Source: Candidatus Nomurabacteria bacterium RIFCSPLOWO2_01_FULL_41_18 (GTDB lineage Bacteria; Patescibacteriota; Minisyncoccia; Phycocordibacterales; UBA9973). From it: DNA of 64,000 nucleotides. The notes under the pieces are model-generated. The model worked only from the letters and a program-made list of their open reading frames with translations, was not told the DNA's origin and did no database searches. This document shows, piece by piece, positions 4,602 through 56,882 of this stretch. Where the stretch lies: positions 242,315 through 306,314 of the forward strand of contig MFUZ01000006.1 of assembly GCA_001785865.1 (NCBI GenBank), given 5' to 3'. Numbering within the stretch: the stretch's first letter is position 1; each line of letters starts with the position of its first letter. Both the position numbers and the translations under genes were made by a program.

Positions 4602-4641
4602 AGATAAATACTAGCAAAAATAGATATAAAAATCAAAAACT

Positions 4642-20983: not shown

Positions 20984-25261
<4,278 letters not shown>

Positions 25262-25263
25262 TT

Positions 25264-25545: not shown

Positions 25546-25551
25546 AAAATT

Positions 25552-25923
25552 TTACTTTTGTATCTTCCCTATCAAAATTCCCAAAAGCTTTTTGACGCTA
25601 TTCTGCGCATCTGCCTCGGCTCCACTGCCGGTAAAATTCTGCCATTCTGCCATCACTTCCGCGTCTTTCAAATCGCGGACGGCATTTTCAAGTGTTAACC
25701 TTGTTTCAAAATCAACTTCCGTATCTGCCTGCAATACTTTTTCAATAAACATTGAGGTGAAATTGATTATCTTTTCATTGGTTTCAACTTTGGACTGACC
25801 AGACTTCACTCCTCCTATTTCTCTAGACAAAGTGAAATAATTAAATCCAAAAAATACATTGCCAATAACTAATGATCCAATAATTATAATTATAGCAATA
25901 CGCTCCATTTTAGGTTCTATCAT
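25552..25923 (-). CDS. hypothetical membrane-anchored protein (123 aa)
   Basis: N-terminal TM (IAIIIIIGSLVIGNVFFGF); no recognisable family. Confidence 0.4.
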   Translation of the reverse strand: MIEPKMERIAIIIIIGSLVIGNVFFGFNYFTLSREIGGVKSGQSKVETNEKIINFTSMFIEKVLQADTEVDFETRLTLENAVRDLKDAEVMAEWQNFTGSGAEADAQNSVKKLLGILIGKIQK

Positions 25924-25988
25924 AAATATTTGATATAAATTCTATTCCGTCAGAAGCAGGTCGCCTCGAGGTGACCGGTAGCACTCGC

Positions 25989-27962
25989 CTACTGGCGAAG
26001 GCGGCTTCTAACAGAATTATACACTAATAATAATAACACAACAACTAAAAGAATGGTCTTCCAGTCGAGTCCAGTTAAGCTGGAAAGCCATCCTCCGGAG
26101 CTTCGGAGCTCTATGTTCTCGTGAATGCCAGCACCCGAGGTGACGACGAATGCTTTGCCTTCATACGGCTCATATCCGGGCGCTTCTACCGAGAAATAGT
26201 AGCTACCTTCCGGTACGAGGAAAGAATACGTCCCCCGGACGTCGGTTATTTGCGGATTTTCCTGACTGTAATCTTTGGCAGGCCATAGTTCATAGCTTTT
26301 AGTGGATACGTTTAGAGAATAGAGAGAGACGATCGCCGACGGAATACGGGTTTCTTTGCCATTATTCTTCTCAAAAACATATCCCTCTGGGTCAATGACT
26401 GTTATCATCCTCATCTGGCGAGTGCCGAGAACGGGGTCTATATAATCAATTACAGTGATCACTTCATATTCACCCGGCACTACGGGCGAGACGACATCGG
26501 CAGTGTATATGCCGTCACGGTCGGGATCAGTATATTCAAAGGAAGAAAGTACTAATTTATTTTCAACCGAAATCGGTTCGGGATTTTTTTCAACTAAATC
26601 ATTCGAAGCAAAAAGAGCTGAAGCCAGAAGAGATGAGCGAGAAATTTCATTTTGATTCCCTTCTGCTACTTTCGGTGTTGCGGATTTGAATACAATATAA
26701 CCAGTCACGCTTGACGCAGAGCCAATAGGTTTTACCACTAGCCGCATCGTCTGGCCGGGTAGCGTTGATATTTTTTGAACAACTTCTCCTTTATCACCGA
26801 TAGACATCGCAACATTCAGGTCAATCAACTCTCCGCTCGCCCGGGCAAAGACAAATTCTGCAGGCAAATTTCTCTTATCAACTAGTGAAAAATTTGCGAG
26901 AGGTAACCCTTCTATAAGAGCAATCTTGCCTACACCGATGTTGGGTAATATTTTTTGATCCGGATTTGAGAGTCCGGGAATATCTAGAGAGACACCATTT
27001 AATTTATCTATCTGAGCCAATCTTCCTGCTCCGATATTTTTTAGCGTATTGGTAAGCTCTGAAAGCCCTGGAAGATTTAAAGTTATACCGCTTAATTTGG
27101 TCAGATCAGTCATCCTGTGAACATCAACACTTTTGAGCGTTTTATCCAGTTCGGGGAATTTGGAGGCTAGAATGCGAACCTCATACGGGAGCGGCGCGAA
27201 GACAAAAGCATTGATAGCCCCTGTCGGCAGAAGATCCCATTCGCCCATAAATGCGAGAGGGGTGATCTTGGGAATCTCAGAGACTACGGTCACTGGTTCG
27301 CTTTTGGGTCTAAAGAAATTCAAAATAGGACTGAAAAAATTATCCGCAGGGGGATTTTCGGCAACCGGTGGAAAGATTTCCTGAGTGGAGAGCGACGAAG
27401 TTGTTCTGGACCTAGTTACAGAAACAGATCCACTTCCGTCGTCAACGTTTCGCGCGCTTGCCGGTCGCCAATCGGTTTGCACTTTAAAGTTTGCCGAACC
27501 ACAAGAATCTATCCCGCCCGCGCAATTAAAATTAATTTGGCTGTTATCGGATTTCACCGTCGCATAGCCCAAAAATTCCCCGCTTGTATTTATGGTGACT
27601 CCGCTAAAATTAATCCAACCAAGGTTGGGACTCCAGGCAAATCCAGAAAGCGTCCCTTCTGCATTATTGGAGACTCCCGAGGTGTCCGGATCTAAGTTTA
27701 TCCAACCGTATTCACTACTCCAAGCTTGCCCTGAAAGACCCGTGTCGGTAACGCCCACATCGCAATTATCACAGCCGAAATTGATCCAGCCGATATTTTC
27801 TCCCCAAGCATATTTATGTGTTCCGTCAATCGTCCCTTCCGTATTCGAAGCGAAAGCCGAATTAGCACCAAAAAAAACAAAAGAAAACAACGCAAAAAGA
27901 ACGACAAAAAACCCTAGAAAAACCAATTTTGCTCTGGGAAATTTTTTTAACATTTTTTGCAT
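25989..27962 (-). CDS. secreted/surface-anchored protein with GWINF repeats, LRR-like region and carboxypeptidase-regulatory-like beta domain; C-terminal TM anchor
   Basis: Signal peptide, three GWIN(F/L) repeats, LxxLxL repeats, YSFLVPEGSYYFSVEAPGYEPYEG beta-sandwich, C-terminal hydrophobic tail. Confidence 0.5.
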   Translation of the reverse strand: MQKMLKKFPRAKLVFLGFFVVLFALFSFVFFGANSAFASNTEGTIDGTHKYAWGENIGWINFGCDNCDVGVTDTGLSGQAWSSEYGWINLDPDTSGVSNNAEGTLSGFAWSPNLGWINFSGVTINTSGEFLGYATVKSDNSQINFNCAGGIDSCGSANFKVQTDWRPASARNVDDGSGSVSVTRSRTTSSLSTQEIFPPVAENPPADNFFSPILNFFRPKSEPVTVVSEIPKITPLAFMGEWDLLPTGAINAFVFAPLPYEVRILASKFPELDKTLKSVDVHRMTDLTKLSGITLNLPGLSELTNTLKNIGAGRLAQIDKLNGVSLDIPGLSNPDQKILPNIGVGKIALIEGLPLANFSLVDKRNLPAEFVFARASGELIDLNVAMSIGDKGEVVQKISTLPGQTMRLVVKPIGSASSVTGYIVFKSATPKVAEGNQNEISRSSLLASALFASNDLVEKNPEPISVENKLVLSSFEYTDPDRDGIYTADVVSPVVPGEYEVITVIDYIDPVLGTRQMRMITVIDPEGYVFEKNNGKETRIPSAIVSLYSLNVSTKSYELWPAKDYSQENPQITDVRGTYSFLVPEGSYYFSVEAPGYEPYEGKAFVVTSGAGIHENIELRSSGGWLSSLTGLDWKTILLVVVLLLLVYNSVRSRLRQ

Positions 27963-28017
27963 TCCCCTTCGCTCAAAAATTTAAGCGAAGTCTTAAGTAT
28001 TATAGCAAAAAGCAATA

Positions 28018-30558
28018 CTAAATCACAATGTTGACAAGCCTGTTTTTCACATAAATCATCTTTTTGACGTCTTTTCCTGCAATATGCCTCACAACAGTTT
28101 CATTCTCCAGAGCTTTTTTCTTTATGCTTTCTTCTGTTTCATCTGCCTGCACAAAAATTTCAGCTCTAACTTTTCCATTTATTTGTATTACAATTTTAAT
28201 TTCTTCATCTTTTATTAAATTCTCATCCCATTTTGGCCAATTGGAGAGATTGATCGAATCCTTCTCTCCTAGAAGGCTCCATAATTCTTCGGTCATATGC
28301 GGTGCGAATGGTGAGAGAACTTGCAGAAATTTTTTATAATCTTCCACTGAAACATTTTCAGCTTTTTCCATCTCTGTCGCCAGAATCATCATGGAAGAGA
28401 TTGCGGTATTGAAATTCATACCCTCTATATCTTCAGAAACTTTTTTTATGGTTTTGTGCAATAACCGAACCAGTGGAGAATTTTTTGACATTCCGGAAGA
28501 ATTATTAAATTTCAAAACTTTCTCCCCTATCCTCCAAACTTTTTCAATAAATCTTCTAGCTCCGATAATGCTTTCCGTAGACCAAGCCACGGACTGATCA
28601 AACGGCCCCATAAACATTTCATAAACTCGAAGTGTATCTGCGCCATAGGTTTTCACAATGTCATCCGGGTTAATTACATTTCCAAGAGACTTGGACATTT
28701 TGACTCCCCCTTCACCCAAGATCATCCCATGCGAAGTACGCTTCATGTATGGCTCGTTTGTAGGCACAAGTTTCAAATCAAAAAGAAATTTATGCCAAAA
28801 ACGAGAATACAAAAGATGCAGAGTCGTGTGTTCATTTCCGCCGTTGTACCAGTCTACTCCACCCGTATTTCCCCCTCTCCTTTCAGGAGAGGGCTGGGGT
28901 GAGGTTAACCAGTATTTTAAATTTTTCTTGCTTGCAAATTCTTTATTATTTTTCGCATCAGCATATCGCAAATAATACCAAGAACTTCCAGCCCAGTTTG
29001 GCATGGTGTCTGTTTCTCTTTTTGCTTTACCAAGGCACTTTGGACATTTCACATTTACCCATTTTGAAATGTTTGCGAGTGGTGATTCGCCACTATCCGT
29101 CGGCTGATAATTCTTAACTTTTGGTAATTCCACCGGCAAATCTTTTTCTGGAACTGGAACTACCCCACAATCTTGGCAATGTATAACTGGTATGGGCTCA
29201 CCCCAGTATCGCTGTCTAGAAAAAATCCAGTCACGAAGTTTGAAGGTCGTCTTTCTAGAAGCGGCACTCTCTGAACTTAACCAATCAATAATTTTAGGTC
29301 GAGCTTCTGCTGAAGTTAAACCATCAAATTGTTTAGAATTAAAAAGCACACCTTCACCTTCGTAACATTCTTCCATGTTTTTTATTTTCTCAAAAAGTGA
29401 TTCGTCTTTGGATTTGATCGAAACCTTGAGAGGAATATTATATTTTTTCGCCATATCAAAATCCCTTTTATCATGAGCATCAGCAAATACAGCGCCAGTC
29501 CCATAATGAACTAACACAAAATCTGATACCCAAACTGGTATTTCTTCTTTGGTTGCTGGATTAATGACCCTGACACCCTTTAATTCAATTCCCGTTTTAT
29601 TACTTTCTGCTGTTCTCTCAACTTCTGGTCTATTTTTAACTTCTTTAATATATTTTTCAACTTCATTCCAGTTTAAAATACTATTTTTGTATTCTTGAAT
29701 AAATGAATGTTCGGGAGCTAAAACAATAAAAGTACAAGAAAAAATTGTATCGACACGAGTAGTAAAAACTTTTATAGCTAGGTCTTGTCTAGCTGAAACT
29801 TTAAACTCTATTTCTGCGCCTTCACTTTTCCCTATCCAATTCCTCTGCCCAAGCTTAATTTGTGGAAGATAATTTACATCATCTAAATCTTTATAAAGCC
29901 TATCGGCGTATTTTGTAATCGCTAGCATCCATTGCTCTTTCTCCCTTTTTTCCACTGCAGTCCCACAACGTTCACAAACGCCAGCTTGCCCTGAGCCTGT
30001 CGAACGGGTTACAACTTCTTCATTCGCAAGTCCAATTTTATCCTTCGGGCACCAGTTTATCGTCATCTTCGCTTTGTAAGCTAAACCTTTTTTCAAAAAT
30101 TGTAAAAATATCCACTGTGTCCATTTGTAATATTTTGGATCAGTGGTATTTATTTCTCGCGACCAATCAAAAGAAATACCGAGTGACTTTATCTGTCTGC
30201 GAAAAGTATCACTATTTTTCTTGGTAACTATCCGTGGATCTTTGCCTGTTTTTATTGCAAAGTTTTCTGTCGGCAATCCAAATGCATCCCAACCTATAGG
30301 ATACAAAACATTAAAACCTTCTAGCCTTCTTTTTCTAGAAATAATATCCATCCCTATGTAAGGCCTTGGATGCCCTACATGAAGACCGTCTCCAGAAGGA
30401 TATGGAAACTCTATCAAGCCATAGAATTTCGGCTTGATCGCAGACTTACTCAGACTGGACGCGGACTGACGCGGAAAATCTTTTGCATAATATATTCCAT
30501 TTTTGTCCCAGATAGTCTGCCATTTACTTTCTATCTTTAAGTGGTTATATTCCTTCAT
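28018..30558 (-). CDS. leuS: leucine--tRNA ligase
   Basis: FPYPSGDGLHVGHPRPY HIGH region, KMSKSLGN, editing domain; carries 16-aa GC-rich insert TSPQPSPERRGGNTGG. Confidence 0.9.
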   Translation of the reverse strand: MKEYNHLKIESKWQTIWDKNGIYYAKDFPRQSASSLSKSAIKPKFYGLIEFPYPSGDGLHVGHPRPYIGMDIISRKRRLEGFNVLYPIGWDAFGLPTENFAIKTGKDPRIVTKKNSDTFRRQIKSLGISFDWSREINTTDPKYYKWTQWIFLQFLKKGLAYKAKMTINWCPKDKIGLANEEVVTRSTGSGQAGVCERCGTAVEKREKEQWMLAITKYADRLYKDLDDVNYLPQIKLGQRNWIGKSEGAEIEFKVSARQDLAIKVFTTRVDTIFSCTFIVLAPEHSFIQEYKNSILNWNEVEKYIKEVKNRPEVERTAESNKTGIELKGVRVINPATKEEIPVWVSDFVLVHYGTGAVFADAHDKRDFDMAKKYNIPLKVSIKSKDESLFEKIKNMEECYEGEGVLFNSKQFDGLTSAEARPKIIDWLSSESAASRKTTFKLRDWIFSRQRYWGEPIPVIHCQDCGVVPVPEKDLPVELPKVKNYQPTDSGESPLANISKWVNVKCPKCLGKAKRETDTMPNWAGSSWYYLRYADAKNNKEFASKKNLKYWLTSPQPSPERRGGNTGGVDWYNGGNEHTTLHLLYSRFWHKFLFDLKLVPTNEPYMKRTSHGMILGEGGVKMSKSLGNVINPDDIVKTYGADTLRVYEMFMGPFDQSVAWSTESIIGARRFIEKVWRIGEKVLKFNNSSGMSKNSPLVRLLHKTIKKVSEDIEGMNFNTAISSMMILATEMEKAENVSVEDYKKFLQVLSPFAPHMTEELWSLLGEKDSINLSNWPKWDENLIKDEEIKIVIQINGKVRAEIFVQADETEESIKKKALENETVVRHIAGKDVKKMIYVKNRLVNIVI
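28866..28908 (-). repeat. in-frame GC-rich palindromic element copy (CCCCCTCTCCTTTCAGGAGAGGGCTGGGGTGAGG) in leuS
   Basis: 9-bp perfect IR CCTCTCCT/AGGAGAGG plus GGGGTGAGG tail; absent from E. coli LeuRS between YWLP and VD(I/W)Y. Confidence 0.7.
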
Positions 30559-30573
30559 TGTTACATAATAAAC

Positions 30574-30657
30574 AAAAAACCGCCTTTATGCAAAAGCTCC
30601 CGATTTTTTAGCTTTATAAAAAGCTCTTAAAATCGCAGTCCTTTAGGGCGGTTTTTT
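30574..30657 (-). terminator. long composite hairpin (AAAAAACCGCC ... GGCGGTTTTTT) between upstream membrane-protein gene and leuS start
   Basis: 11-bp outer stem with internal sub-hairpins, U-run on minus-strand transcript immediately before leuS RBS. Confidence 0.35.
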
Positions 30658-30679
30658 GTTTAAGTCTTTTTAAATATTA

Positions 30680-31753
30680 TTAGTAAATCGGCACTGGCTT
30701 GGTATAGCGATAAGTGTCTGGATTGATAGTTTGTTCAAAACAATAGTGCCCAGCGGGATGTACCCATGATCTAGAATTATATGGATCTCTTATAGGAGCA
30801 GTCATGGTTTTACCATTACTTTCTTCATTATTTGACGATTTGTTAAATTCCGCACAGAGATTATATGTTGTCTCGCTTGTTTTTTGATATTCGTATGGCT
30901 TTCCTGTTTGTGGATCTACCTTGTTAGGGTAATATTGGTTGTACGTATTTACTTCATCTATCGTGTTCGGTAACACTCCTTTGGTTGAGTAAAAATTTTC
31001 AATCTGACCATCTAAATTCTGTAAATAACTTACTTTTTGCTCGTCATATTTGATCAATCTTTGAGTTCGAGGTGAACCGAGAACAGAAAATCCCCAAACA
31101 ATAGAACCAATGACAATGATTCCCGCAATTACTCTCCAAGCCATCCTAGAATTTTTCGTCAGTTTTTTTCTAAGATCAGAAATGTAGTAAATAAAAAGAC
31201 TAGAAAAGATAACAAGTAGTACAGCGACTTTTAGAAGAAAACCAGTCGTTAATTCCTGTCCGTCAATAAAATAGTAAACGACAGTTATCAAATCTCCCGC
31301 TACCACACAACCGGAAATAAACAGAGTTAGATATGTGAGCCCTTTATGAATGACGCTATTTTGCATCTCTCCCTCTACTCTGTATTGCCTTTCCAAGAAC
31401 CACATCAAAATCATGAAAATAGGAAGAAGCACGACCAGAGTGGCGACAGGCCAGCTGATCGATGAACTGCCGTAATAATTATAACCATTGGTAACTTTCG
31501 GATAGGCTGTGTTGATAACAGTAAACAATAGGCTTAAAAGATTGCCGAGTAATACGTAAAGTGTGATAAAAGCTCCTAAATTCAGCAAAACATCTTTTGC
31601 AGTTGCTCTTGGGCGAATTTGTGTTTGATTTGGATCCATATTATTTCTGTTACGATTAATAAAAAATGAAATGAGGCCAACTATTATCCCTATAACTACA
31701 ACGAAAAAAATAATAATGTAAATAAAGAACGAAAATGGAAAATATTCGAACAT
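30680..31753 (-). CDS. hypothetical polytopic membrane protein
   Basis: ~6 TM helices in N-terminal two thirds, soluble C-terminal domain; no family recognised. Confidence 0.45.
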   Translation of the reverse strand: MFEYFPFSFFIYIIIFFVVVIGIIVGLISFFINRNRNNMDPNQTQIRPRATAKDVLLNLGAFITLYVLLGNLLSLLFTVINTAYPKVTNGYNYYGSSSISWPVATLVVLLPIFMILMWFLERQYRVEGEMQNSVIHKGLTYLTLFISGCVVAGDLITVVYYFIDGQELTTGFLLKVAVLLVIFSSLFIYYISDLRKKLTKNSRMAWRVIAGIIVIGSIVWGFSVLGSPRTQRLIKYDEQKVSYLQNLDGQIENFYSTKGVLPNTIDEVNTYNQYYPNKVDPQTGKPYEYQKTSETTYNLCAEFNKSSNNEESNGKTMTAPIRDPYNSRSWVHPAGHYCFEQTINPDTYRYTKPVPIY

Positions 31754-31794
31754 TGTGAATAAATTACTGTTAATTAATAATAACTATATCTACA

Positions 31795-32772
31795 TTATAC
31801 GCCCCAAACCGCCGTATTGGCAAGTGGGATGATGCGATTGTTGGACTTTTCTAATACACAAAGCTCACCAGCTTCTATTTGGCCTTCAAAGTTTTTCATA
31901 GTTTCCTCTAGTGCATACCCAAGAGAAAGTGAAGAAGAATCTATCGCATACGAGGTTAAAATAACAAAAAGTGGCTTGTCACTCAAAACTTTTTGCACTG
32001 CTGATAAAAGCTTTGGCAACATTTCTTCTATTTTCCAAACTTCTCCTTTTGGTCCCCTACCAAACTTTGGTGGATCCATTATTATGGCATCATATTTGTT
32101 TCCCCTCTTTGCTTCTCTCTCTAGGAATTTTATTGCATCATCTTCTATGATTCGCATGCCTGTTAGTCCTAAATGACTATTGAGTTTTTCATTTTCTTTT
32201 GCCCAAGCGAGGCTTTGCTTTGAAGCATCGAGGTGCGTCACTACTGCGCCAGCGCGAAGCGCAAACAAGCTCGCCACTCCCGTATAGCCGAACAAGTTCA
32301 AAAATCTAGGTCTGGAAGCAGAGGGAGAATTCTGGCGGCGGAAGGTTCCGTCCGAAGGATGGAGGAATGTCGCAGAATTCTCCTTCTGTAAAAGACCACC
32401 AACACTAGCGCTGATCTTTTCTTCAATAAAATCCCAGTGGCAAGCCTGCTCTGGGAAAAATCCCAAGTGTCGGAAAGGAGTAGGTGAAGCCAGAAATTTA
32501 ATGCCTTTATATTGCATCTCCCATCTATCTTGAATCTTTTCTTTCATCTTCCACCCAGCTTTTGCTCCCACTTTTGAACTCCAAAATTTACCGTCAGCTT
32601 TATTCCATTCTTTTTCCGACAAAGTTTTTGCCCAAACAGCATCTTCATAAGGACGCACAAAAACATATTTACCAAATCGCTCCAACTTTTCCCCCTCACC
32701 CGTATCTAGGAGCTCATAATCACCGAAGTCTGTGGAATCTTTCAAATAAAAAATTTTAATTTGGTTTTGCAT
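31795..32772 (-). CDS. class I SAM-dependent rRNA methyltransferase (RlmI/RlmK-like)
   Basis: LFGYTGVASL..HLDASK SAM-binding motif and DPPKFGRGPKGEVWKIEE catalytic region; contains 60-bp GC-rich in-frame palindromic insert. Confidence 0.65.
   Translation of the reverse strand: MQNQIKIFYLKDSTDFGDYELLDTGEGEKLERFGKYVFVRPYEDAVWAKTLSEKEWNKADGKFWSSKVGAKAGWKMKEKIQDRWEMQYKGIKFLASPTPFRHLGFFPEQACHWDFIEEKISASVGGLLQKENSATFLHPSDGTFRRQNSPSASRPRFLNLFGYTGVASLFALRAGAVVTHLDASKQSLAWAKENEKLNSHLGLTGMRIIEDDAIKFLEREAKRGNKYDAIIMDPPKFGRGPKGEVWKIEEMLPKLLSAVQKVLSDKPLFVILTSYAIDSSSLSLGYALEETMKNFEGQIEAGELCVLEKSNNRIIPLANTAVWGV
32324..32383 (-). repeat. 60-bp (20-codon) GC-rich in-frame insert bounded by perfect 11-bp inverted repeat GGAGAATTCTG/CAGAATTCTCC
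   Basis: Read directly; length multiple of 3; lies in linker of methyltransferase. Confidence 0.55.
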
Positions 32773-32774
32773 AA

Positions 32775-33260
32775 TTATTTCTTACCTTGAATATTATTCT
32801 TAATCCATTCATTTTTCTTTTTTCTATACTCATCCTCTGGTAAACCGTCTAAGGAATTTTTAAAATCTTCATATCTTTGACTTAAACCTGCATCTGCTCG
32901 CAATTTTTCTAAAGTCCTGCGATGAATTCCTATCATCTTATGACCTACAGGAAGTATTTGTAAATCAACTCTTATTCCATTTCTTTTTGTATTTAAGTGG
33001 CTAATTTCTTTGACTACAGGACCTTGTATGTAACTTTTTTCAACAAGCAACTTACTGTCAGCATTAACGTCATTGCTCACAACCATCACGTCAATTTCTG
33101 ATTTTCCAGAAATCGGCACAGCCATAGAACCAATCAATTCTGAAGAAGAATCAGGAAGTATTTTTGATAATTCAATAATAATTTCTTTCTGTAATTCAGA
33201 AATTTCTAGAGATGGTTTTATTATCTTTATTTTTTCGTTCATGCTTGTATTATAACACAC
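32775..33260 (-). CDS. GrpB family protein (nucleotidyltransferase-fold, UPF0157)
   Basis: 161 aa; LIGSMAVPISGKSEIDVMV and C-terminal pattern typical of GrpB. Confidence 0.55.
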   Translation of the reverse strand: MCYNTSMNEKIKIIKPSLEISELQKEIIIELSKILPDSSSELIGSMAVPISGKSEIDVMVVSNDVNADSKLLVEKSYIQGPVVKEISHLNTKRNGIRVDLQILPVGHKMIGIHRRTLEKLRADAGLSQRYEDFKNSLDGLPEDEYRKKKNEWIKNNIQGKK

Positions 33261-33271
33261 TCTTTATTAGT

Positions 33272-33312
33272 GAACCACCGATGTTGATAAATTCTGCATA
33301 TGCAGAATTTAT
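33272..33312. repeat. 40-bp perfect palindrome GATGTTGATAAATTCTGCATATGCAGAATTTATCAACATC just downstream of PaaX-like gene
   Basis: Perfect IR; half-site recurs upstream of same gene at 33941-33963. Confidence 0.7.
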
Positions 33313-33322
33313 CAACATCTAG

Positions 33323-33925
33323 TTAAGGCAAGTGAAAATGTTTCCCTAATTTTTCATCTCTCAAAATGTTTTCTACGACCAAAATCTCAACACACTTCTC
33401 TACTCCAAAGAAATCAGCAATAAATATTATTTCGTCTTCGCATGGATAAGGATAAATCCAAGCGGATTTTTGAAATTGAAAAAAATTTAGTTCTTTCAAA
33501 TGAAAACGTAATGCTTCCCGTCCTTTTGTAAATCTCATAGGAATATCAAACATAACTAATCTCCATTTACCGTCCCATTTCTTAGGCTTGTTAATTTTCA
33601 TCAACTCAATATCAAAAACTTTTAATTTAGTATCACCTTTTTTTGTAATTTTTACTATTGTTTTCCCGTTCTTGTCAGAGACATATTCTATAAGATTTTG
33701 TTTACGAAGATGATTTATTGAATTTCTAATTTGTTCCTTACTGAGATGTTTAGAACTTTTAAATTGTCTGAAAACTTGTACTGCATTGCCCATAGCAGCC
33801 GCAATCAAAACAAGAGCTGGAATTGACGCAACAGCGATCACACACAAAACCACTTGAGCAATCTGGGCTTTTCTTGTCTTAGAATCCAAAAATTCTCTAA
33901 TTCTTGAGGAATATTTATTTTTCAT
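33323..33925 (-). CDS. PaaX-family-like transcriptional regulator (TM anchor + winged-helix + PaaX_C/Cas2-like alpha/beta domain), tentative
   Basis: wHTH-like LRKQNLIEYVSDKNGKTIVKITKKGDTKL; C-terminal WRLVMFDIP...ALRFHLKELNFFQFQKSAWIY; ATG at 33925 preferred over upstream TTG at 33961. Confidence 0.45.
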   Translation of the reverse strand: MKNKYSSRIREFLDSKTRKAQIAQVVLCVIAVASIPALVLIAAAMGNAVQVFRQFKSSKHLSKEQIRNSINHLRKQNLIEYVSDKNGKTIVKITKKGDTKLKVFDIELMKINKPKKWDGKWRLVMFDIPMRFTKGREALRFHLKELNFFQFQKSAWIYPYPCEDEIIFIADFFGVEKCVEILVVENILRDEKLGKHFHLP

Positions 33926-33940
33926 ATTGTTTATAATTAT

Positions 33941-33963
33941 AGCATATGCAGAATTTATCAACA
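33941..33963. promoter_or_regulatory. upstream copy of 22-bp motif GCATATGCAGAATTTATCAACA (candidate operator) in promoter region of PaaX-like gene
   Basis: Direct match to half of the downstream 40-bp palindrome. Confidence 0.4.
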
Positions 33964-33987
33964 GAAGATTTTAAAAGGTATAAAATA

Positions 33988-34839
33988 CTATACCAAAAAC
34001 TCTATCACATCCCCATCCTTGACAATATATTCTTTGCCCTCGGTGCGGACCCAGCCTTTCTCTCGCGCTTTTGCAAAACTCCCCGCTTCTACTAATTGTT
34101 CATAAGACACCACTTCTGCGCGAATAAACTTTTGTTGAAAATCAGTATGGATGGAACGACCTGCAAAAGGCGCAGTGGCTCCACGAAGCGTGGTCCATGC
34201 CCTTGATTCATCTTCGCCAGTTGTAAAAAAAGTTATTAAATTTAATAAATCATAACTAGCTTTAATTAGATTATCCAAACCCGTGCCAAAAATAGGATCA
34301 ACTTCTATGTGTGGTCCAGGAAGCTTCGCAACGAAATCTTTCCCGCCCGACTGAACGACATCAGTCGTTCGGGCGGGTTTTACATTTTCAGCTAAAGCTG
34401 AAGTATTTAAGACATATAACGTTGGTTTTTTAATTCCTCCTTGCTCCAATTCAAAATTGATAACTTCTATATCAAAAAGCGGATCAACTTTGTCGTGAAC
34501 ATGAATCATGTCTTTATCTTCAAAAATCCGCACCACCTCAATGATGGCATCCACTTCGCGAATATGCGAAAGAAATTTATTTCCAAGCCCTGCGCCCTCG
34601 CTCGCACCTTTTACAAGCCCTGCAATATCCACAAATTCAACTACAGCGGGTATAGTTTTCTTTGATTTAGATATAACGGAGAGTTTCATCAAGCGTTCGT
34701 CCGGCACAGGCACAATGCCCACCGATGGATCAATGGTGCAAAAAGGATAATTCTCCGCCGGGACATTTTTCTTTGTAAGAGCGTTAAAAAGCGTGGATTT
34801 GCCGACATTAGGAAGCCCTACAATTCCGATTTTAAGCAT
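33988..34839 (-). CDS. ychF: ribosome-binding ATPase YchF (Obg-like GTPase family), short form
   Basis: [29 protein letters not shown]-terminal TGS-like domain. Confidence 0.8.
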
Positions 34840-34907
34840 TTAGAGAATATAGCAAAAAAACACCGCAATGTCATTCCTGTTTTGTGTTATTTATTTAAAC
34901 TTTTACA

Positions 34908-35480
34908 TTAAAGCGAACTTATTAACCATCCAAACACACTGAAGTCATCGTCGCGCTCAAGAATAAAGTTATTCACCTTGGCTCTTTGTTGCTCTAGGGC
35001 ATCTATTTGGCTATTGATTTGAGTTATCATACTATTATCGTTTGTTTTTAACATCAAAGCATTGAGAGTGCGACCTTGATCTTTCATTTGAACCAATTGA
35101 AATTTCAATACCCCTAAGTCATTACCTAAAAAGAATGTCTGCACCGCGCTTCTGCCTTCCAGGATAGTTATGACATGATCTGACTTTTCTATAGAATTGA
35201 TTTGTTGTTCGGTAATTGCTTCTAAACTTTTTATATTATCTTCGTCTATTGTGTATTCTTCTAATAAGAACGTGGTATCACTTCCTATCTTATAAAAGTC
35301 AACTTTATTCTCTAGCGCATTATACCTATAAATACTGTCGTACTCGGAAGTAACTTCATCTACCTCAAAAGCTTCCAATGTATAAGCAAAAAATACGATG
35401 GGTAAAATCATAAGTGACACTTTTATTGTTATTACTGGAGTTTTGGTCATACCTCTGATGCCGTCTTGGAAACCAGACAA
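34908..35480 (-). CDS. hypothetical membrane-anchored protein (190 aa)
   Basis: N-terminal TM; no recognisable domain. Confidence 0.35.
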   Translation of the reverse strand: MSGFQDGIRGMTKTPVITIKVSLMILPIVFFAYTLEAFEVDEVTSEYDSIYRYNALENKVDFYKIGSDTTFLLEEYTIDEDNIKSLEAITEQQINSIEKSDHVITILEGRSAVQTFFLGNDLGVLKFQLVQMKDQGRTLNALMLKTNDNSMITQINSQIDALEQQRAKVNNFILERDDDFSVFGWLISSL

Positions 35481-35539
35481 TTACAACAAAACCATTTCTT
35501 GATTTTTCTTTTCCGACTCTTTAATGTGAAATTCTAACT

Positions 35540-36037
35540 TTACTGTTCGTGCATTGAACTTGGTCCAACTCTATTGGCATGCTGTGCCAGTGTTTCAGCG
35601 ACCACCACCATATCTGTGATGTCTTCCATAGACAGAAGAATAATAGACACAGAAGCACTAGAAGTAGCATCTTCGTTGAAGTGAATCTGCCGGGCGTTTA
35701 AAATCATCACTTTACGTCCAATAAAAGGAAAATTATGCGTAACTTCAAACCCTTTGAAAAAACTATGCTGAGGCAAGATATCTTCTAGAAGTTTTCGTAA
35801 CGCAGGAATGTCCCATTGACCATTGCCGAGTTTGTATACCGCCTGACCCTCTGTGTCTTTTGACTCAACCTGAAATACTTTATAGAAAGATTCATTAGCC
35901 GCCATAACACAAAGATCACGATCTAAAACTAAAATAGGTTCCCGCACCATATCTACGACAGTTTTGATATATGTCCAACTTTTTTCCCATATATGTTCTA
36001 CTAAATTTGCTCCACCTATTTTTCTATTAGTCTTCAT
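35540..36037 (-). CDS. stand-alone PAS domain protein
   Basis: PAS-fold pattern (VLDRDLCVMAANESFYKVF...VMILNARQI). Confidence 0.5.
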   Translation of the reverse strand: MKTNRKIGGANLVEHIWEKSWTYIKTVVDMVREPILVLDRDLCVMAANESFYKVFQVESKDTEGQAVYKLGNGQWDIPALRKLLEDILPQHSFFKGFEVTHNFPFIGRKVMILNARQIHFNEDATSSASVSIILLSMEDITDMVVVAETLAQHANRVGPSSMHEQ

Positions 36038-36134
36038 AGCACAGAAGCCGTTATGTATCTAAAATTATTACGGAAAAAAAATAAAACCACTCCGCTTTTA
36101 GCGGAGTGGTTTTTACAACACATCATGTAAAACT

Positions 36135-36419
36135 TTATCCCATGTGTCCACTACCTAAAATCAAACTAGATTCTCGCTCAAACAAAGCATTCTCCTGTTC
36201 AATACATGCTGGACATTTGGTAAAGTGTACAGAAATATTTTCTTCGTTGTATTCGTTTAGATAATTAGGTTTTTTAAAATTCCAAGATTTTTTATAGTAA
36301 AAAGCATAACAATGCTCACACATAGACATAGTAAGAGTTTTGAATTTCTTATTTCTGGGAAACTCTTTTCTTTTACCATTAACCCAATCTTTTGCTAATG
36401 TTTTAAATCTTTTTAACAT
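36135..36419 (-). CDS. hypothetical Cys-rich zinc-ribbon protein (94 aa)
   Basis: Two CxxC pairs (CEHC ... CPAC). Confidence 0.4.
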   Translation of the reverse strand: MLKRFKTLAKDWVNGKRKEFPRNKKFKTLTMSMCEHCYAFYYKKSWNFKKPNYLNEYNEENISVHFTKCPACIEQENALFERESSLILGSGHMG

Positions 36420-36624
36420 ATATTTTTATTTTTTACCCCGCCACAGCGGGGCAAGTTAATTTTTAATAATTGTTCGACATTAAGTTAATAATATTACGTA
36501 AATAATTTAATCTAATTTTAATATTATATTAATACGAAATCGATAAGTCAATATAAAAAATAGCCCTTTTGGGCATAAGTTGTTAATAAACTGTTTATAA
36601 TTTTAATGTTAACTTAACTTTATA

Positions 36625-37878
36625 TTATTTAGTAGGCTTTATCGGTAAAGTGACGCTAAAAATACTGCCTTTGCCTAGGACACTCTCTGCTTTTATTGTT
36701 CCGCCATGTATTTCTGTTGCCCATTTTGTTATAGCAAGCCCGAGCCCTGAATGACTTCCATTAGAGCTATGGGTATGGGCCTTATCACCCCTGTAAAAAC
36801 GATCAAATATTTTTGGTAAATCTTCTCTTGATATTCCCATGCCGTCATCAGCTATTTTTATTTTCACCATATTTTTTTGTGCGCTTAGGTCAATTAGAAT
36901 GTTTCCGTTTCTTTTACCGTAAGTTATGGAATTTTTTATGATATTAATGAATAACCTTTTTAAATATCTTTCTTCTCCGGCAATATGCAAATTTTTGACT
37001 TCATCCTTAATTTTTATCTTTATATTTTTTTCCAACGCCACTATTCTCAATCTTTTTACTAGGTCTTTAATTAATTTGATTAAATCTACAGGAGAAGAGT
37101 TTATAGTATTTTTTACACTTTGGCTGGAAGAAAGTGGGGAGGTAAGCAAAGCCAAGTTTGTAAAGATATTTGATAGGCTAGTTATTTCAATGTTTATTTT
37201 TTTTAAAGTTTCACGAACAGATTTTAAATTGTTTTTATTCATTAACGCTAGGTCTATATTGCCTCTCATGATGGCGAGCGGAGTCCGGAGCTCATGCGTT
37301 GCATTTGCAATAAATTCTGTTTTTAACTTTTCTTGTGATAAAAGAACTTCTGTAACTTTTTGTTTTTCAGCCATACTGAGGGACTTTTGTTCTTTTTCTA
37401 TGAGCCAATTAGTATTCACAGCTCGAGATGCCATAATTTCTATTGTCTCTGCCAATACAAATTCCTCCTCCGTAAAGTCGTGTCGATTCTTGTAACACAA
37501 CACAATACTACCAAATATGTGTTCACCATAGCGAATAGGAATAATCATGTAACTCTTGAAATCATTCGAGATATGGGATTCATAATTTTCGCTTTTTACG
37601 TTTGGGTCGAATAGTATGTTTCCCTTTTTTTCTGCTATATGATGGCCTGTTTTATTTTTTGGGATGATTGGATCAAAATGAATATTTTTGCTTTTATATA
37701 TAGTTTCAAATCTGTCATTAGTAGGGGATTTTTCTAAAGCAAAACTGAAATCCGCATTTAAAATTTTCTCACTTTCCTCCGTAAATTTTTTAATAACTGA
37801 TGCATTATTTTCATCTCTCATTAAATGCATACTAACATCATTTAATGTGACGATTTTTTTTAAAATTAGTTTTTCCAT
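36625..37878 (-). CDS. sensor histidine kinase with GAF domain (cytoplasmic)
   Basis: GAF-like N-terminus, H-box HELRTPLAIMRGNIDL, HATPase_c G-boxes (DDGMGI, GLGLAI). Confidence 0.8.
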   Translation of the reverse strand: MEKLILKKIVTLNDVSMHLMRDENNASVIKKFTEESEKILNADFSFALEKSPTNDRFETIYKSKNIHFDPIIPKNKTGHHIAEKKGNILFDPNVKSENYESHISNDFKSYMIIPIRYGEHIFGSIVLCYKNRHDFTEEEFVLAETIEIMASRAVNTNWLIEKEQKSLSMAEKQKVTEVLLSQEKLKTEFIANATHELRTPLAIMRGNIDLALMNKNNLKSVRETLKKINIEITSLSNIFTNLALLTSPLSSSQSVKNTINSSPVDLIKLIKDLVKRLRIVALEKNIKIKIKDEVKNLHIAGEERYLKRLFINIIKNSITYGKRNGNILIDLSAQKNMVKIKIADDGMGISREDLPKIFDRFYRGDKAHTHSSNGSHSGLGLAITKWATEIHGGTIKAESVLGKGSIFSVTLPIKPTK

Positions 37879-38441
37879 GCACTTAGATATTTTAAAATAT
37901 CGGGAATTTCTTTTTCAAGTATATGATTTTTGATCATTTGTTTATATTCTTTTGGAAGATTAAGTAGAAAGTTATAGGATAATTTTTGGAAACCACCACC
38001 TGGTATACCATCTTCTTTTTTAAGCATCTCTTCATTGATGGGTTTTTTAAGAACGTATACTGAGCGAATAAAGTTGTTAATCGTACCTCCAAAGTCGTCT
38101 TGTGTGTGATGTAAGACTTTAAGTTTTTTTATAAATATTAAGTCAGAAGGTGTGACGGAAATACCTGTTTCTTCTTTGGTTTCTCGAACTGCTGCATCTA
38201 AATATTCTTCACCTTTATTTGGATGTCCAGCAATAGTAGCGTCTAAAAGGCCAGCTGATTTTTTATGCAAACCCATTTTCTGAAAGAAAATATTTTTATT
38301 TTTGTCAAAAATCCACACCTGTATTTCGCGATGAAGCAATCCAAGACGATGTATATCGATTCTGGACTTAGAATCAACGATCTTGTCATTTTTATCTATG
38401 ACGTCCAATATTCTTTTATTTTCGTAATTTAAATTAGTCAT
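37866..38441 (-). CDS. NUDIX hydrolase
   Basis: Nudix box GHPNKGEEYLDAAVRETKEETGI. Confidence 0.7.
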   Translation of the reverse strand: MTNLNYENKRILDVIDKNDKIVDSKSRIDIHRLGLLHREIQVWIFDKNKNIFFQKMGLHKKSAGLLDATIAGHPNKGEEYLDAAVRETKEETGISVTPSDLIFIKKLKVLHHTQDDFGGTINNFIRSVYVLKKPINEEMLKKEDGIPGGGFQKLSYNFLLNLPKEYKQMIKNHILEKEIPDILKYLSAWKN

Positions 38442-38519
38442 AATCCTTTGGTTTTCGCTCTTTTGAGCTCATCAGTCAGGACATACATCCTGATAACTTT
38501 GACCCACAACCCTGTGATA

Positions 38520-39173
38520 TCAAAGTGTGTGTGGGTCGGAATTTGGCGTAGGTTTTTCAGGCAAACCCACTATTCTTGCGATCTGTCTCGCGCATTGCTC
38601 AGGTGTGCCGTCGTTGTAAATTACAACGTCGTAATACTTTTCAACCCCGAGCTGTTCATATCTTTTTATTTTTTCAAGTTTGCGCGTAGGATCAATCCCA
38701 TGCATCAGGCAACGTTCTGTGAGCCTTGCCTTCAAGGTTTCCAAAGAACGGGAAGAGATGAACACCAGCTTCATCTTTGGGAATTTACGACGATGATTTA
38801 AACCACCCCTTCCAAACAAGCATACAACTAAGTCTGTGCCTTTTGGTGTTGGAAGCCAGATTTTTCTTTTCAAAATGGCCGTGCGGTACGTTTTTCCGTT
38901 CACCTCCACCTGCCGAATTGTTCCGGGGATGAAAAATTTATCATCCCATAGTATTTGGAACTGTTCTTCTGTCACGAACCGGTACTCTTTTTCGGATTCC
39001 TCTCCCGGACGTTTTGGTCGAGTGTAGTATCTCGGTATCACATGAATCTTGTATCCAAGATGTTCCAAAGCTCGTAATACTGTCGTTTTCCCAGCACCTG
39101 GGGGACCATTGATGCCGACATGGGTAATTGGTTTTTTCATTTTTCCTTTATTAAATTGTTTAAGATCTTTCAA
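38520..39173 (-). CDS. P-loop nucleoside/nucleotide kinase (guanylate kinase-like)
   Basis: Walker A GPPGAGKTT and YTRPKRPGEE..YRFVT guanylate-kinase-like motif. Confidence 0.5.
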   Translation of the reverse strand: MKDLKQFNKGKMKKPITHVGINGPPGAGKTTVLRALEHLGYKIHVIPRYYTRPKRPGEESEKEYRFVTEEQFQILWDDKFFIPGTIRQVEVNGKTYRTAILKRKIWLPTPKGTDLVVCLFGRGGLNHRRKFPKMKLVFISSRSLETLKARLTERCLMHGIDPTRKLEKIKRYEQLGVEKYYDVVIYNDGTPEQCARQIARIVGLPEKPTPNSDPHTL

Positions 39174-39239
39174 GATCTAGTTGCTATGTGTTTCTCTCAT
39201 TATATAACACAAACTAGTTTTACGCAAGTCCTTTACAGC

Positions 39240-39908
39240 TTATTCTTTCAACACAAAACCAACTCCTCGTACAGTGTGTATTAAGGGTTTTTTATCTCTA
39301 TTTTCTATTTTTGTGCGTAAGTACTTTATATGAACATTTAATTCATTGTTCGTTTCTTTAAATTCAGGCCCCCAAGCATGGTCTATAAGTTGGCGTCTTT
39401 TTATAGCTTCTCCGGGACGAGTAATCAAAAAATCTAAAAGTTTATATTCTTTTGGTGTTAATTTTATTATTCTTCCTCCGCGAGTAACCTCATGCTTTTT
39501 TTTATCCATGATAAGATCCCCGACTTTATTAATATCTCCGTCTGTGGTTTTCCTGCGACGTAGTACTGTGCGGATTCTGGCAAAAAGTTCCTGAGTGCTA
39601 AATGGTTTTACCATATAATCATCTGCACCAATATTTAAGCCATTGACTCTGTCTTCTAGTGTACCTCGAGCAGTGAGCATAATAATAGGTGTATGGATTT
39701 GATGGTCTCTTAATTCTTTACAAACAGCAAAGCCATCTTTTTTGGGAATCATTATATCAAGCAAAATCATACTGTAATTGTTCTTCATAGCTTTTCGAGA
39801 TGCCTCTTCTCCATCAAAAGCTGTATCTACAGAATAACGCTCACTTTTGAGAGCGCTATTCAATATATTTGATAGTTTTTTTTCGTCTTCAACAACTAAT
39901 ATTGACAT
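39240..39908 (-). CDS. OmpR/PhoB-family two-component response regulator
   Basis: Receiver domain (ILVVEDE...D...LTAR) plus winged-helix trans_reg_C (RTVLRRR...LIHTVRGVGF). Confidence 0.85.
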   Translation of the reverse strand: MSILVVEDEKKLSNILNSALKSERYSVDTAFDGEEASRKAMKNNYSMILLDIMIPKKDGFAVCKELRDHQIHTPIIMLTARGTLEDRVNGLNIGADDYMVKPFSTQELFARIRTVLRRRKTTDGDINKVGDLIMDKKKHEVTRGGRIIKLTPKEYKLLDFLITRPGEAIKRRQLIDHAWGPEFKETNNELNVHIKYLRTKIENRDKKPLIHTVRGVGFVLKE

Positions 39909-40030
39909 GACTCCAGTATATAACTATTGATTAGGATTTGCAAGGATTATTATTAATAATATATTAAAGTAGTTAGTTAAATTTAGATTAAAGTTATCCA
40001 CAGAATCCACATATTTCTCAGTTCGCTGTG

Positions 40031-40059
40031 TTGACTCCTAAATTGCGATAAGATATAGT
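40031..40059 (+). promoter_or_regulatory. sigma70-like promoter TTGACT-17bp-TATAGT upstream of ECF sigma factor gene
   Basis: -35 40031-40036, -10 40054-40059, 21 nt upstream of ATG at 40081. Confidence 0.5.
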
Positions 40060-40080
40060 GTTAAAATAACATTAAATTTT

Positions 40081-40590
40081 ATGACAACACTCGAAAAGAC
40101 AAGATTAGAATCAATCCTTACCTTAGCTCATCATGACTATGAGAAAGGACTAAATTCTCGTGCATTCTTCAAAGTTAGCAATCGCGAGTTGGGAGAAGAC
40201 TTGGTCCAGCAAACATTTATGAAAACTTGGATTTATCTCGTAAAGGGAGGAAAAATAGAAATGATGAAATCTTTTCTCTATCATATTTTAAATAACCTTA
40301 TTGTCGACGAATACCGTAAACACAAAACAACTTCTCTCGAGACTCTAATGGAAAAAGGCTATGAGCCTAGCACAACAGATGCAATTAATTTAATGACTAT
40401 TTTAGACGGCAAAGCTGCATTTCTTTTAATAGAACGTCTCCCAGAAATGTATCGGAGAGTAATGAGAATGAAATATGTGCAAGATTTATCTTTAGGAGAA
40501 ATGTCTGTTCTCACCGGACTATCGAAAAACACCATCGCAGTACAACTCCATCGCGGATTGGAAAAAATAAAACTTTTATATAAATACTGA
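40081..40590 (+). CDS. RNA polymerase sigma factor, ECF (sigma-70 group 4) family
   Basis: Region 2 (LVQQTFMKTWIYL...DEYRK) and region 4 HTH (LSLGEMSVLTGLSKNTIAVQLHRGLEKIK). Confidence 0.75.
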   Translation: MTTLEKTRLESILTLAHHDYEKGLNSRAFFKVSNRELGEDLVQQTFMKTWIYLVKGGKIEMMKSFLYHILNNLIVDEYRKHKTTSLETLMEKGYEPSTTDAINLMTILDGKAAFLLIERLPEMYRRVMRMKYVQDLSLGEMSVLTGLSKNTIAVQLHRGLEKIKLLYKY

Positions 40591-40606
40591 AATTATTTAA
40601 TCAAAG

Positions 40607-41443
40607 TTAACTAGGAAGCTGTGCATCGTCATCTAGAATCTCAAAATCATCCCCTTCTATCTTTGGAATTCTCCGCTCCCGCACCAGATACACCGCCCCT
40701 CCGCCAAGCGCAATCAAAATGAATAAACTTATCAGAGAAATAGCGTACTTTTTCTGTTTCGGCTGGACTTGGTCTTGAGTTTCCAATGCAGAAGCTTTCA
40801 TTGCATTCGGAGTGAAAATATCTTCTGCGACAGCAGTTTTTGGAACGGTATTTTGAGGCGGATTAGCTATTTTCTCCAACACTGGAAGTTTTTTAACGGT
40901 AGAAGCTGGCGCAGGTCTTACCGACGGAATGTAAGGAATATACATCTTATTGGCTCCACCCAGCGTAGGCTCGCTCTCTTTCCATTCTCCCCCTATCTTT
41001 GATATTGTCCTCCCATTACCACTTCCGCCCATTCTGCTCGCATAGACCACTTGGTCGACCGTCGAGAGATCCTTGTCTTTGAGCGCGATAGACTCCCCAG
41101 CATTTGAAAATGTAAAACTGGAATCGAAAATATTTCCTCCAAAACTCGGATAATTCTCTTTGAATTTCTCCGGATTGGAAACTATGAGCGCATACCCTCC
41201 CGCCCCCAAGTCTGGCGACCCTTGCGCCAGGATTAATTTATGGTTGACGCCTCCTTCAAAAAATTTGTATAGGGTGAGATCGATGTTATTTGGTCCAGAA
41301 TTGTAAATCTCGACCCATTCCTTGCCTTCATCGGAACCTTCCTGGTCGTACATTATCTCATTTATTATCAGACTGGATTCCGCCATTGTGTAGTTTGAAA
41401 AAAAGACACTAACTAGAACAACTAGAATCAGTTTTTTCTTCAT
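40607..41443 (-). CDS. lamin-tail-domain (LTD) secreted protein with C-terminal TM anchor
   Basis: Signal peptide; LIINEIMYDQEGSDEGKEWVEIYN motif of LTD; C-terminal hydrophobic anchor. Confidence 0.65.
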   Translation of the reverse strand: MKKKLILVVLVSVFFSNYTMAESSLIINEIMYDQEGSDEGKEWVEIYNSGPNNIDLTLYKFFEGGVNHKLILAQGSPDLGAGGYALIVSNPEKFKENYPSFGGNIFDSSFTFSNAGESIALKDKDLSTVDQVVYASRMGGSGNGRTISKIGGEWKESEPTLGGANKMYIPYIPSVRPAPASTVKKLPVLEKIANPPQNTVPKTAVAEDIFTPNAMKASALETQDQVQPKQKKYAISLISLFILIALGGGAVYLVRERRIPKIEGDDFEILDDDAQLPS

Positions 41444-41457
41444 GCTATAATATTAGC

Positions 41458-56857: not shown

Positions 56858-56882
56858 TGTATTACGTAATACATTACGTAAC
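56849..56882. repeat. 34-bp perfect palindrome GTTACGTAATGTATTACGTAATACATTACGTAAC (copy 2) overlapping fmt and hpf stop codons
   Basis: Identical 32-bp core to copy at 10107-10138; same convergent-gene context. Confidence 0.7.

Follow-up and report, generated by a model that had tools for sequence, protein, structure and literature searches.

A truncated PaaX-like regulator gene bracketed by two candidate operators in a Nomurabacteria genome and related Patescibacteria

The regulator and its neighborhood

The DNA analyzed here (the window) is a stretch of 64,000 nucleotides from contig MFUZ01000006.1 of Candidatus Nomurabacteria bacterium RIFCSPLOWO2_01_FULL_41_18, and the gene of interest lies on its minus strand at 33323..33925. 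Its product is a regulator of 200 amino acids, in which an N-terminal helix and a hydrophobic segment are followed by a winged helix and a Cas2-like domain of the PaaX type. The conserved upstream neighbor is ychF (33988..34839, minus strand), which forms the left border of an insertion hot spot, and the right border is a gene for a SAM-dependent methyltransferase (31795..32772, minus strand). Between the regulator and the methyltransferase gene is a gene for a GrpB-like nucleotidyltransferase (32775..33242, minus strand), a variable passenger that is found in the window and in the related loci L002 and L003 and is absent from L001 and L005. Further neighbors in the window are a DUF5671 gene and leuS; in other loci the family is found beside rpsP-trmD-rpoB or secY-adk.

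The start of the regulator gene is assigned to the ATG at 33925, with the N-terminus MKNKY, because an alignment of homologues shows it. An open reading frame extended to a TTG at 33961 is a translation of the candidate operator DNA and not the N-terminus of the regulator. The same misannotation of the start is found in some database entries, for example P0021, for which the N-terminus is given as LINSAYA.

The Cas2-like domain (residues 115-187; 33365..33583, minus strand) matches the Pfam family PF20803 (PaaX_M) with E = 7e-19 and 68.1 bits against a cutoff of 24, is carried by all homologues listed, and is presumed to be a dimerization module. D127, Q152-K153-S154, and C162/E165 are invariant within it. 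Pfam matches to winged helices are weak and fall at residues 47-110; the recognition helix and β-wing were placed at residues 58-99 (33629..33754, minus strand) from the AlphaFold secondary structure, these weak matches, and the co-variation with half-sites described below. The AlphaFold2 model was built from a 55-sequence alignment and is mediocre (mean pLDDT 65), with a helix at residues 18-43 predicted at low confidence; it is adequate for domain-level fold matches, and membrane segment and winged helix are not separable in it at residues 21-52. The best Foldseek matches in the PDB are PaaX (8a39) and Rv0674 (3kfw), followed by several Cas2 structures, while the family profile, searched against PDB sequences, returned just spurious matches to Smac/Diablo (E around 0.1).

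PaaX is the repressor of phenylacetate catabolism in Escherichia coli and Pseudomonas (PDB 8a39, 3l09). The regulator resembles it in the order of its domains, a winged helix followed by the Cas2-like middle domain (PF20803), and has PaaX as its best fold match; it differs in having neither the C-terminal helical domain nor paa genes nearby. There is no Pfam match to PaaX_C, and the regulator ends about 10 residues past the Cas2-like domain. Members of the family have 175-230 amino acids, compared to about 305 for PaaX, and the regulator scores 20.3 bits against the PaaX equivalog model TIGR02277, for which the cutoff is 264.55. In true PaaX, the C-terminal domain is said to bind phenylacetyl-CoA (PMC9493321). 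The regulator is a truncated PaaX-like protein consisting of a winged helix and a Cas2-like domain, and not a true PaaX. With no paa genes in the vicinity, database entries that call such proteins "repressor in the phenylacetic acid catabolism" are misnamed. The original prediction of a PaaX/Cas2-like fold was correct with respect to the fold, but assigned it to the C-terminus of PaaX, and the domain in question is the PaaX middle domain instead.

The likeness to Cas2 and VapD lies in the fold of residues of about 115-190, for which the Foldseek probability reaches 0.94. The FDIP and QKS motifs of the regulator align with the YDI(T) and Q-x-S of Cas2, in a weak alignment, and hhalign against an approximate Cas2 sequence placed D127 with the catalytic Asp, but with E = 0.11. 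However, the regulator is below the cutoff of the Cas2 model TIGR01573 (14.1 bits, compared to 24.5) and is fused to a DNA-binding domain; no cas genes, including cas1, are found among its neighbors, and no CRISPR-like tandem repeats were found in the region 25000-42000. The PADLOC and PHROG models gave only weak winged-helix or Cas2-like matches with E of at least 0.001, including PADLOC Cas2_II with E = 0.005.

The N-terminal transmembrane helix that had been predicted corresponds to a real hydrophobic segment. The stretch IAQVVLCVIAVASIPALVLIAAAMGNAVQVF (residues 21-52; 33770..33865, minus strand) has 31 uncharged residues and is a predicted membrane segment, with a 19-residue Kyte-Doolittle maximum of 2.89 at residues 25-43 and positive charges flanking both sides. 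S34, P36, G46, and N47 in this stretch are invariant in an alignment of 24 orthologues. A membrane-like segment (Kyte-Doolittle value of at least 2.0) is present in 53 of 81 family members. The secY-adk subfamily does not have the 21-residue insert, and the segment is therefore dispensable for the fold. PaaX differs in having no such hydrophobic segment. Membrane-tethered DNA-binding proteins are known, for example ToxR, CadC, and Noc. The regulator shares with them a predicted membrane segment combined with a sequence-specific DNA-binding domain, but its segment is N-terminal and adjoins or lies partly inside the winged helix, both flanks are positive, and there is no periplasmic sensor. Repressors do not usually have a membrane-like segment of 31 residues within or beside the DNA-binding domain, which counts against autorepression.

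Flanking palindromes in the window and across the family

Both flanks of the regulator gene contain a palindrome. The downstream one (33280..33319), a candidate operator, is a perfect 40-bp palindrome that begins 4 nt past the stop codon; its arms, GATGTTGATAAATTCTGCAT at 33280-33299 and ATGCAGAATTTATCAACATC at 33300-33319, are 100% complementary. A perfect 40-bp palindrome had been recognized here beforehand, but at 33272-33312, about 8 nt away from its actual position. The 22-mer GCATATGCAGAATTTATCAACA is contained in the palindrome on both strands (33282-33303 on the minus strand and 33296-33317 on the plus strand) and recurs upstream of the gene at 33942-33963, as predicted. The upstream occurrence had been described as a single copy in the promoter; it is not a half copy but part of a palindrome of its own, imperfect and 36 bp long (33928..33963, minus strand), with 86% identity to 33282-33317. 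This second candidate operator holds the gene's own promoter, in a layout shared with about 47 related loci.

Each of the two sites has the octamer GCATATGC as its core, at 33942..33949 in the upstream site and at 33296-33303 in the downstream site. The core is invariant in the site alignment. The outer half-sites are GTTGAT (33962-33957) and ATAAAC (33934-33929), both on the minus strand, in the upstream site and GTTGAT (33316-33311) and ATCAAC (33288-33283) in the downstream site. Within the 64-kb window the core octamer occurs at these two sites, one per palindrome, and a search for other copies of the 22-mer GCATATGCAGAATTTATCAACA in the 64 kb found none even with up to three mismatches (chance expectation 0.01). 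Beyond the flanks of the gene, no regulon is visible in the 64-kb window, which counts against autorepression. A metagenome scan for the window-type half-site and core gave one match, on a contig that at 29,973 bp is as long as that of L002 and presumably is that contig, and so was uninformative about a regulon.

The upstream site includes an extended -10 box, TGCTATAAT (33936..33944, minus strand; hexamer TATAAT at 33941-33936), read from the sequence, for which the TGC of the core provides the TGn. The box ends 10 nt before the ATG, which implies that the regulator mRNA would be leaderless or nearly so, and that the candidate operator would span the whole promoter. No Shine-Dalgarno sequence precedes the ATG in the window, and in related loci the extended -10 box of the upstream copy likewise ends about 10 nt before the ATG. 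Of the 47 upstream sites, 44 have a TAnAAT hexamer (TAGAAT, TATAAT, or TAAAAT) immediately past the core on the sense side, and none has one on the antisense side. A mirrored -10 hexamer, pointing back into the gene, is present at the downstream site in 19 of 47 loci; this is outside the reach of a model of autorepression.

The bracketing of the gene is real, and is more general than the view from a single window: it recurs throughout the family. Among 80 loci with relatives of the regulator, fetched from Nomurabacteria, Paceibacterota, Moraniibacteriota, Doudnabacteria, and other Patescibacteria, two copies of a palindrome specific to the locus enclose the homologue in almost every case. In 47 of these loci GCATATGC occurs one time on each side of the gene, 22-92 nt ahead of the mapped start of the coding match and about 24 nt past the stop codon, and hardly elsewhere in the locus (roughly 8 kb each). 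In more distant subfamilies the layout is the same but the palindromic cores differ, for example CCATATGG, GCACGTGC, GCCATGGC, GCTATAGC, and CGATCG. When the 5' flank of a gene is compared to its 3' flank, the best ungapped segment common to both has a median score of 18 for 75 family genes, compared to 9 for the comparison set of 310 other genes of the same loci, and scores of at least 14 are reached by 80% of the former and 2.3% of the latter. The family comprises 1,862 clusters at 50% identity (E up to 1e-10), with several paralogues per genome. No description of the family or of its bracketing sites was found in the literature.

When the 47 downstream sites are aligned on the core, changes in both arms that keep the symmetry account for 177 of 846 cells, compared to 77 in shuffles. 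The covariation score of the arms is 0.465, while shuffled sites give 0.18 (none of 500 shuffles reaches the observed score) and slid partners give 0.11-0.18. The signal is concentrated in columns 6-11 and 34-39, corresponding to two 6-bp half-sites that are 22 bp apart and read GTTGAT and ATCAAC in the window. The core and the outer 6 bp are retained, while the A/T-rich positions that flank the core are often asymmetric or unpaired. The anatomy is that of a putative dimer binding site rather than that of a hairpin. The centers of the half-sites are about 28 bp apart and not on one face of straight B-DNA, a point against the proposed binding.

If the 3' palindrome were chiefly an RNA or DNA hairpin, then it could act as a terminator or as a stabilizer of the mRNA 3' end, and its likeness to the promoter site would reflect a common origin. 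As RNA, the palindrome of the window forms an 18-bp hairpin with a folding energy of -31.5 kcal/mol (z = -6.2) right after the stop codon, a location that is conserved whatever gene follows, and two other long perfect palindromes in the window are located between convergent genes, where terminators are expected. However, there is no U tract, a terminator scan had no result, and just 77% of the arm positions pair across the family, with the unpaired ones often adjacent to the core. A hairpin would also have no need to match the promoter site of its own gene, and upstream and downstream half-sites have 77% identity within a locus compared to 43.5% between loci; nor would it need to track the recognition helix. 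A primary role as a hairpin is unlikely. A canonical intrinsic terminator was rejected for the 3' palindrome, where the hairpin is present but has neither the U tract nor a match in the scan. The only matches in Rfam 15 were hairpin-like and below threshold, at 22-24 bits where the gathering scores are 38-90.

The half-sites co-vary with the protein as well as with each other. With the Cas2-like domain controlled for, the distance between half-sites correlates with the distance between recognition helices and wings (residues 58-99) with a partial r of 0.21 (permutation p = 0.001), while the converse partial correlation, of half-sites with the Cas2-like domain, is -0.03; the clades can be recognized by eye. 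For example, the paralogue P0096 (locus L091), which lies between trmD and rpoB and is attributed to the assembly of the window by the locus-tag prefix A2738 that it has in common with the YchF of the window, has the same core, but the half-sites are ATCCAA/TTGGAT and the recognition helix is different. This tracking of the winged helix by the half-sites is the strongest available sign that the protein most likely reads its own flanking sites.

The downstream core begins at a median of 24 nt past the stop codon (interquartile range 21-34.5), while the next gene, in 45 loci, belongs to one of more than ten families and is 23-763 nt away, on the same strand in 31 loci and convergent in 14. Because the distance from the stop codon is kept whatever gene follows, the 3' site belongs to the regulator gene and not to the promoter of a neighbor. 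The same distances bear on the idea that the 3' palindrome is mainly an operator of the next genes, in this case those for the GrpB-like protein and the methyltransferase, which would be the real targets of the regulator. In all five loci of the ychF context that were examined (the window, L001, L002, L003, and L005) an extended -10 box is found about 24 nt behind the downstream site, so that the site would be at roughly -37 to -76 of the promoter of the next gene. In the window this box is TGTTATAAT (33249..33257, minus strand), which belongs to the GrpB-like gene; it starts 25 nt past the palindrome, and 6 nt separate its end from the ATG of that gene. The same arrangement is found for the GrpB-like gene of L002 and L003. 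In addition, L037 (six sites), L021, and L011 have extra copies of their locus-specific palindromes between or before neighboring genes, and such sites can therefore serve other genes; these copies are in line with autorepression as well. But L001 and L005 keep the site without a GrpB-like gene, and neither the variety of next genes nor the 14 convergent ones fit an operator for the neighbor. As the main function of the site this is improbable, while a local effect on the GrpB-like gene is possible given the -10 box behind the site in the ychF group. We conclude that the 3' palindrome is a candidate second operator that is tied to the 3' end of the regulator gene.

Gain, loss, and exchange of the unit

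Paralogues of the regulator occupy a few conserved junctions, namely behind ychF, at the trmD/rpoB and secY/adk junctions, and beside rpsB-tsf/proS, and synteny is kept within each paralogue group across many genomes. At the junction of ychF and the methyltransferase gene, the gene and both sites are either present or absent as a whole among relatives with YchF proteins that are 82-93% identical, so that gene plus repeats form an indel in the synteny comparison; with this all-or-none presence the unit behaves as a cassette. Six relatives with YchF 87-92% identical to that of the window all lack the regulator. In two of them (L085 and L086) the methyltransferase gene overlaps ychF, and the other four junctions hold nothing, a gene resembling a Y1 transposase, or a glycosyltransferase gene. 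No remnants of the regulator and no solo palindromes were found in the empty junctions of these six.

The history of the regulator also differs from that of its neighbor. Genomes with and without the regulator are interspersed in the YchF tree, and the pairwise identities of regulator and YchF are uncorrelated (Spearman 0.12) in a small sample of seven loci. For YchF, the locus nearest to the window is L003 (93%), while the regulator and the half-sites of the window are most similar to those of L001 and L002. Operator, gene, and operator thus appear to be gained, lost, or exchanged as one unit at this hot spot, and the same would apply at other junctions of housekeeping genes.

In insertion sequences such as IS1, IS10, IS30, and IS911, the transposase binds the terminal repeats, and the promoter that it represses is located within the left end. 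The regulator unit resembles these elements in layout, size, presumed recognition of both ends, and patchy presence at a hot spot, and it could be regarded as an insertion-sequence-like element in which the palindromes are terminal repeats bound by the winged helix and movement depends on the Cas2-like domain as the nuclease. The unit has a promoter inside its left end, a single open reading frame, and a right end just past the stop codon, within about 690 bp; the downstream site mirrors the upstream one, with the -10 hexamer included, in the 19 loci noted above. The all-or-none presence, the clean empty sites, the disagreement of the regulator and YchF trees, the invariance of the Cas2-type Asp D127, and the several paralogues per genome are in line with such an element too. 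The same palindrome is present at both ends of the unit, and the orientation of terminal repeats is undefined in the window.

However, no target-site duplication was found: the longest direct repeat in the outer flanks is 4 nt in the window, and the mean over 47 loci is 4.6 nt, compared to 4.57 for mismatched loci. The window has one unit, with no identical or near-identical extra copies, and the paralogues attributed to one assembly are only about 40-70% identical and have different half-sites. No viral relatives were found in IMG/VR, and Pfam, NCBIfam, and PHROG gave no match to a transposase or recombinase domain. The conservation of synteny within each paralogue group is long-term, and hundreds of orthologues at 70-80% identity with many invariant residues indicate long-term purifying selection. 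Without duplications, identical copies, viral copies, or a transposase domain, self-mobilization is not supported, and an insertion-sequence-like element is very unlikely. The ychF junction also collects unrelated genes, and therefore passive exchange by flanking homology is sufficient. The mobile cassette of the original prediction has weak support, from the all-or-none indel and the incongruence with the ychF tree, and no hallmarks of a transposon were found.

Probable autoregulation and comparison with known systems

The regulator probably represses its own gene, which would have a second operator at its 3' end. A regulator dimer would bind palindromes of about 34-40 bp, with 6-bp half-sites 22 bp apart and GCATATGC at the center. 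Because the upstream site contains the gene's own promoter and ends before the leaderless start, the bound regulator may be expected to shut off its own transcription by occlusion, as PaaX does in E. coli at Px. The operator of E. coli PaaX is TGATTC-N27-GAATCA, and its own promoter Px is repressed by steric hindrance (PMC9493321). Both systems have a long palindromic operator with short half-sites that are far apart, and the 36-bp site of the regulator is predicted to overlap its own promoter; in contrast to PaaX, the half-sites of the regulator are 22 bp apart around a conserved core, and a second candidate operator is located behind the gene.

The function of the 3' site is the least certain part of this model. 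It might raise the local occupancy of the regulator, possibly by looping to the promoter site, and block transcription leaving the unit, as a roadblock at the 3' boundary. Looping repressors include lambda CI at OL and OR, LacI at O1 and O2, and GalR at OE and OI; in lambda, the two operator regions flank the repressor gene. The regulator shares with these a pair of operators (candidates in this case) several hundred bp apart, one of which is over the regulated promoter, but no helical phasing was detected, and the second site is close to the stop codon in all members of the family. The two operators are separated by 573-774 bp. Across the periods that were tried, the Rayleigh test on these distances gives p values of 0.005-0.26, with no correction for relatedness or multiple testing, and helical phasing was rejected as not convincing, which counts against autorepression.

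An autoregulatory operator at both ends of the gene, as originally predicted, is the best-supported mechanism on comparative grounds, with the family-wide bracket, the co-variation of half-sites with the winged helix, and the overlap with the -10 box all pointing to it; the mobile cassette survives only as cassette-like gain and loss. It is conceivable, but rather unlikely, that the units are self-contained, laterally exchanged cassettes at junctions within housekeeping operons of streamlined Patescibacteria (ychF and the methyltransferase gene, trmD and rpoB, secY and adk). The protein, associated with the membrane and bound to the two ends of its own gene, would then split or couple the operon around it as a conditional roadblock or insulator, or else the units would persist as a selfish DNA-binding module. 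If either is the true function, then the units would be a type of regulatory element not described so far. The conserved 3' operator, if it is one, together with the cassette-like gain and loss suggests a previously undescribed mode of gene insulation or autoregulation.

To our knowledge, almost nothing is known about the control of transcription in bacteria of the candidate phyla radiation, which encode few regulators. The family described here is large, and its members, which have rpoB, secY/adk, ychF, and other core genes as neighbors, are routinely mislabeled as phenylacetate repressors. Each member carries recognizable candidate sites on both sides, and pairs of protein and DNA specificity can therefore be read from metagenomes. 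These natural pairs of recognition helix and half-site are a ready set for testing a winged-helix recognition code, and the family gives experiments on regulation in uncultured bacteria a concrete starting point.

The ychF/methyltransferase junction and the GrpB-like gene

The junction between the ychF and methyltransferase genes, which holds the PaaX-like regulator in the window, is an insertion hot spot in the relatives examined there (L085-L090). Its content varies by genome. In some, the ychF and methyltransferase genes overlap with nothing between them; others have a 518-bp gap, a glycosyltransferase gene, or a Y1-transposase-like gene accompanied by a small ORF. The regulator is a further alternative, in some genomes together with the GrpB-like gene and in others alone. 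A large serine recombinase gene lies just upstream of ychF in L085 and L086. In the window, TGTTATAAT (33243-33257 region) ends 6 nt ahead of the ATG of the GrpB-like gene, and this gene also looks leaderless. Its stop codon is only 2 nt from the start of the methyltransferase gene (32770-32777), so the two are probably co-transcribed.

Regulator paralogues at core gene clusters

Some paralogues of the regulator are within or adjoining core gene clusters. In L042-L056 the paralogue sits inside the ribosomal-protein (spc-type) cluster, with secY on one side and adk on the other; in L006-L038 and L091 it occupies the trmD-rpoB junction, directly upstream of rpoB. A few loci (L009, L011, L029) have a sense -10 hexamer facing rpoB on the 3' site, the palindrome just past the regulator stop codon.

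Other palindromes and hairpins in the window

Two further long perfect palindromes are present in the window, 46 kb apart and each in a short gap between convergent genes: 10107-10138 (genes 8962-10104 plus and 10147-11418 minus) and 56847-56884, extended to 38 bp (genes 56000-56857 plus and 56883-57281 minus). They have in common a motif of TTACGTAA(T) units, TTACGTAATGTATTACGTAATACATTACGTAA. Such sites may act as sequence-specific terminators working in both directions, or another factor may bind them. Hairpins at 36083-36113 (AAAACCACTCCGC...GCGGAGTGGTTTT) and 4224-4253 (GAAAAAGAGCACA...TGTGCTCTTTTTC), flanked on both sides by A/T runs, look like ordinary bidirectional intrinsic terminators; canonical terminators would therefore appear to be in use elsewhere in this genome.

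Mirrored, hybrid, and repeated sites in related loci

Among the 47 related loci sharing the window-type core (the central octamer of each site), 19 have ATTCTA or ATTTTA immediately ahead of the core at the 3' site (for example L010, L012, L015-L018, L022-L028, and L038), while a sense-side hexamer is found there in only four. These sequences are the promoter -10 hexamer mirrored, directed back into the regulator gene, and could represent either an antisense promoter or a preferred inner half-site. Several downstream sites are hybrids (L025/L026 from one genome, L015, L016, L018, L024, L031), in which one arm is the half-site of the locus itself and the other is a different recurring half-site, either GTTGGGAA or that of another paralogue. 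The mixed arms hint at cross-talk or heterodimers among paralogues. In L037, the 36-bp palindrome TTGCTTGTAATTTGTGCATATGCACAAATTACAAGCAA occurs six times (positions 685-4636), interspersed among consecutive small genes that surround the regulator gene and whose products are predicted to be secreted or membrane proteins; the six copies presumably form a local regulon or else mark successive boundaries.
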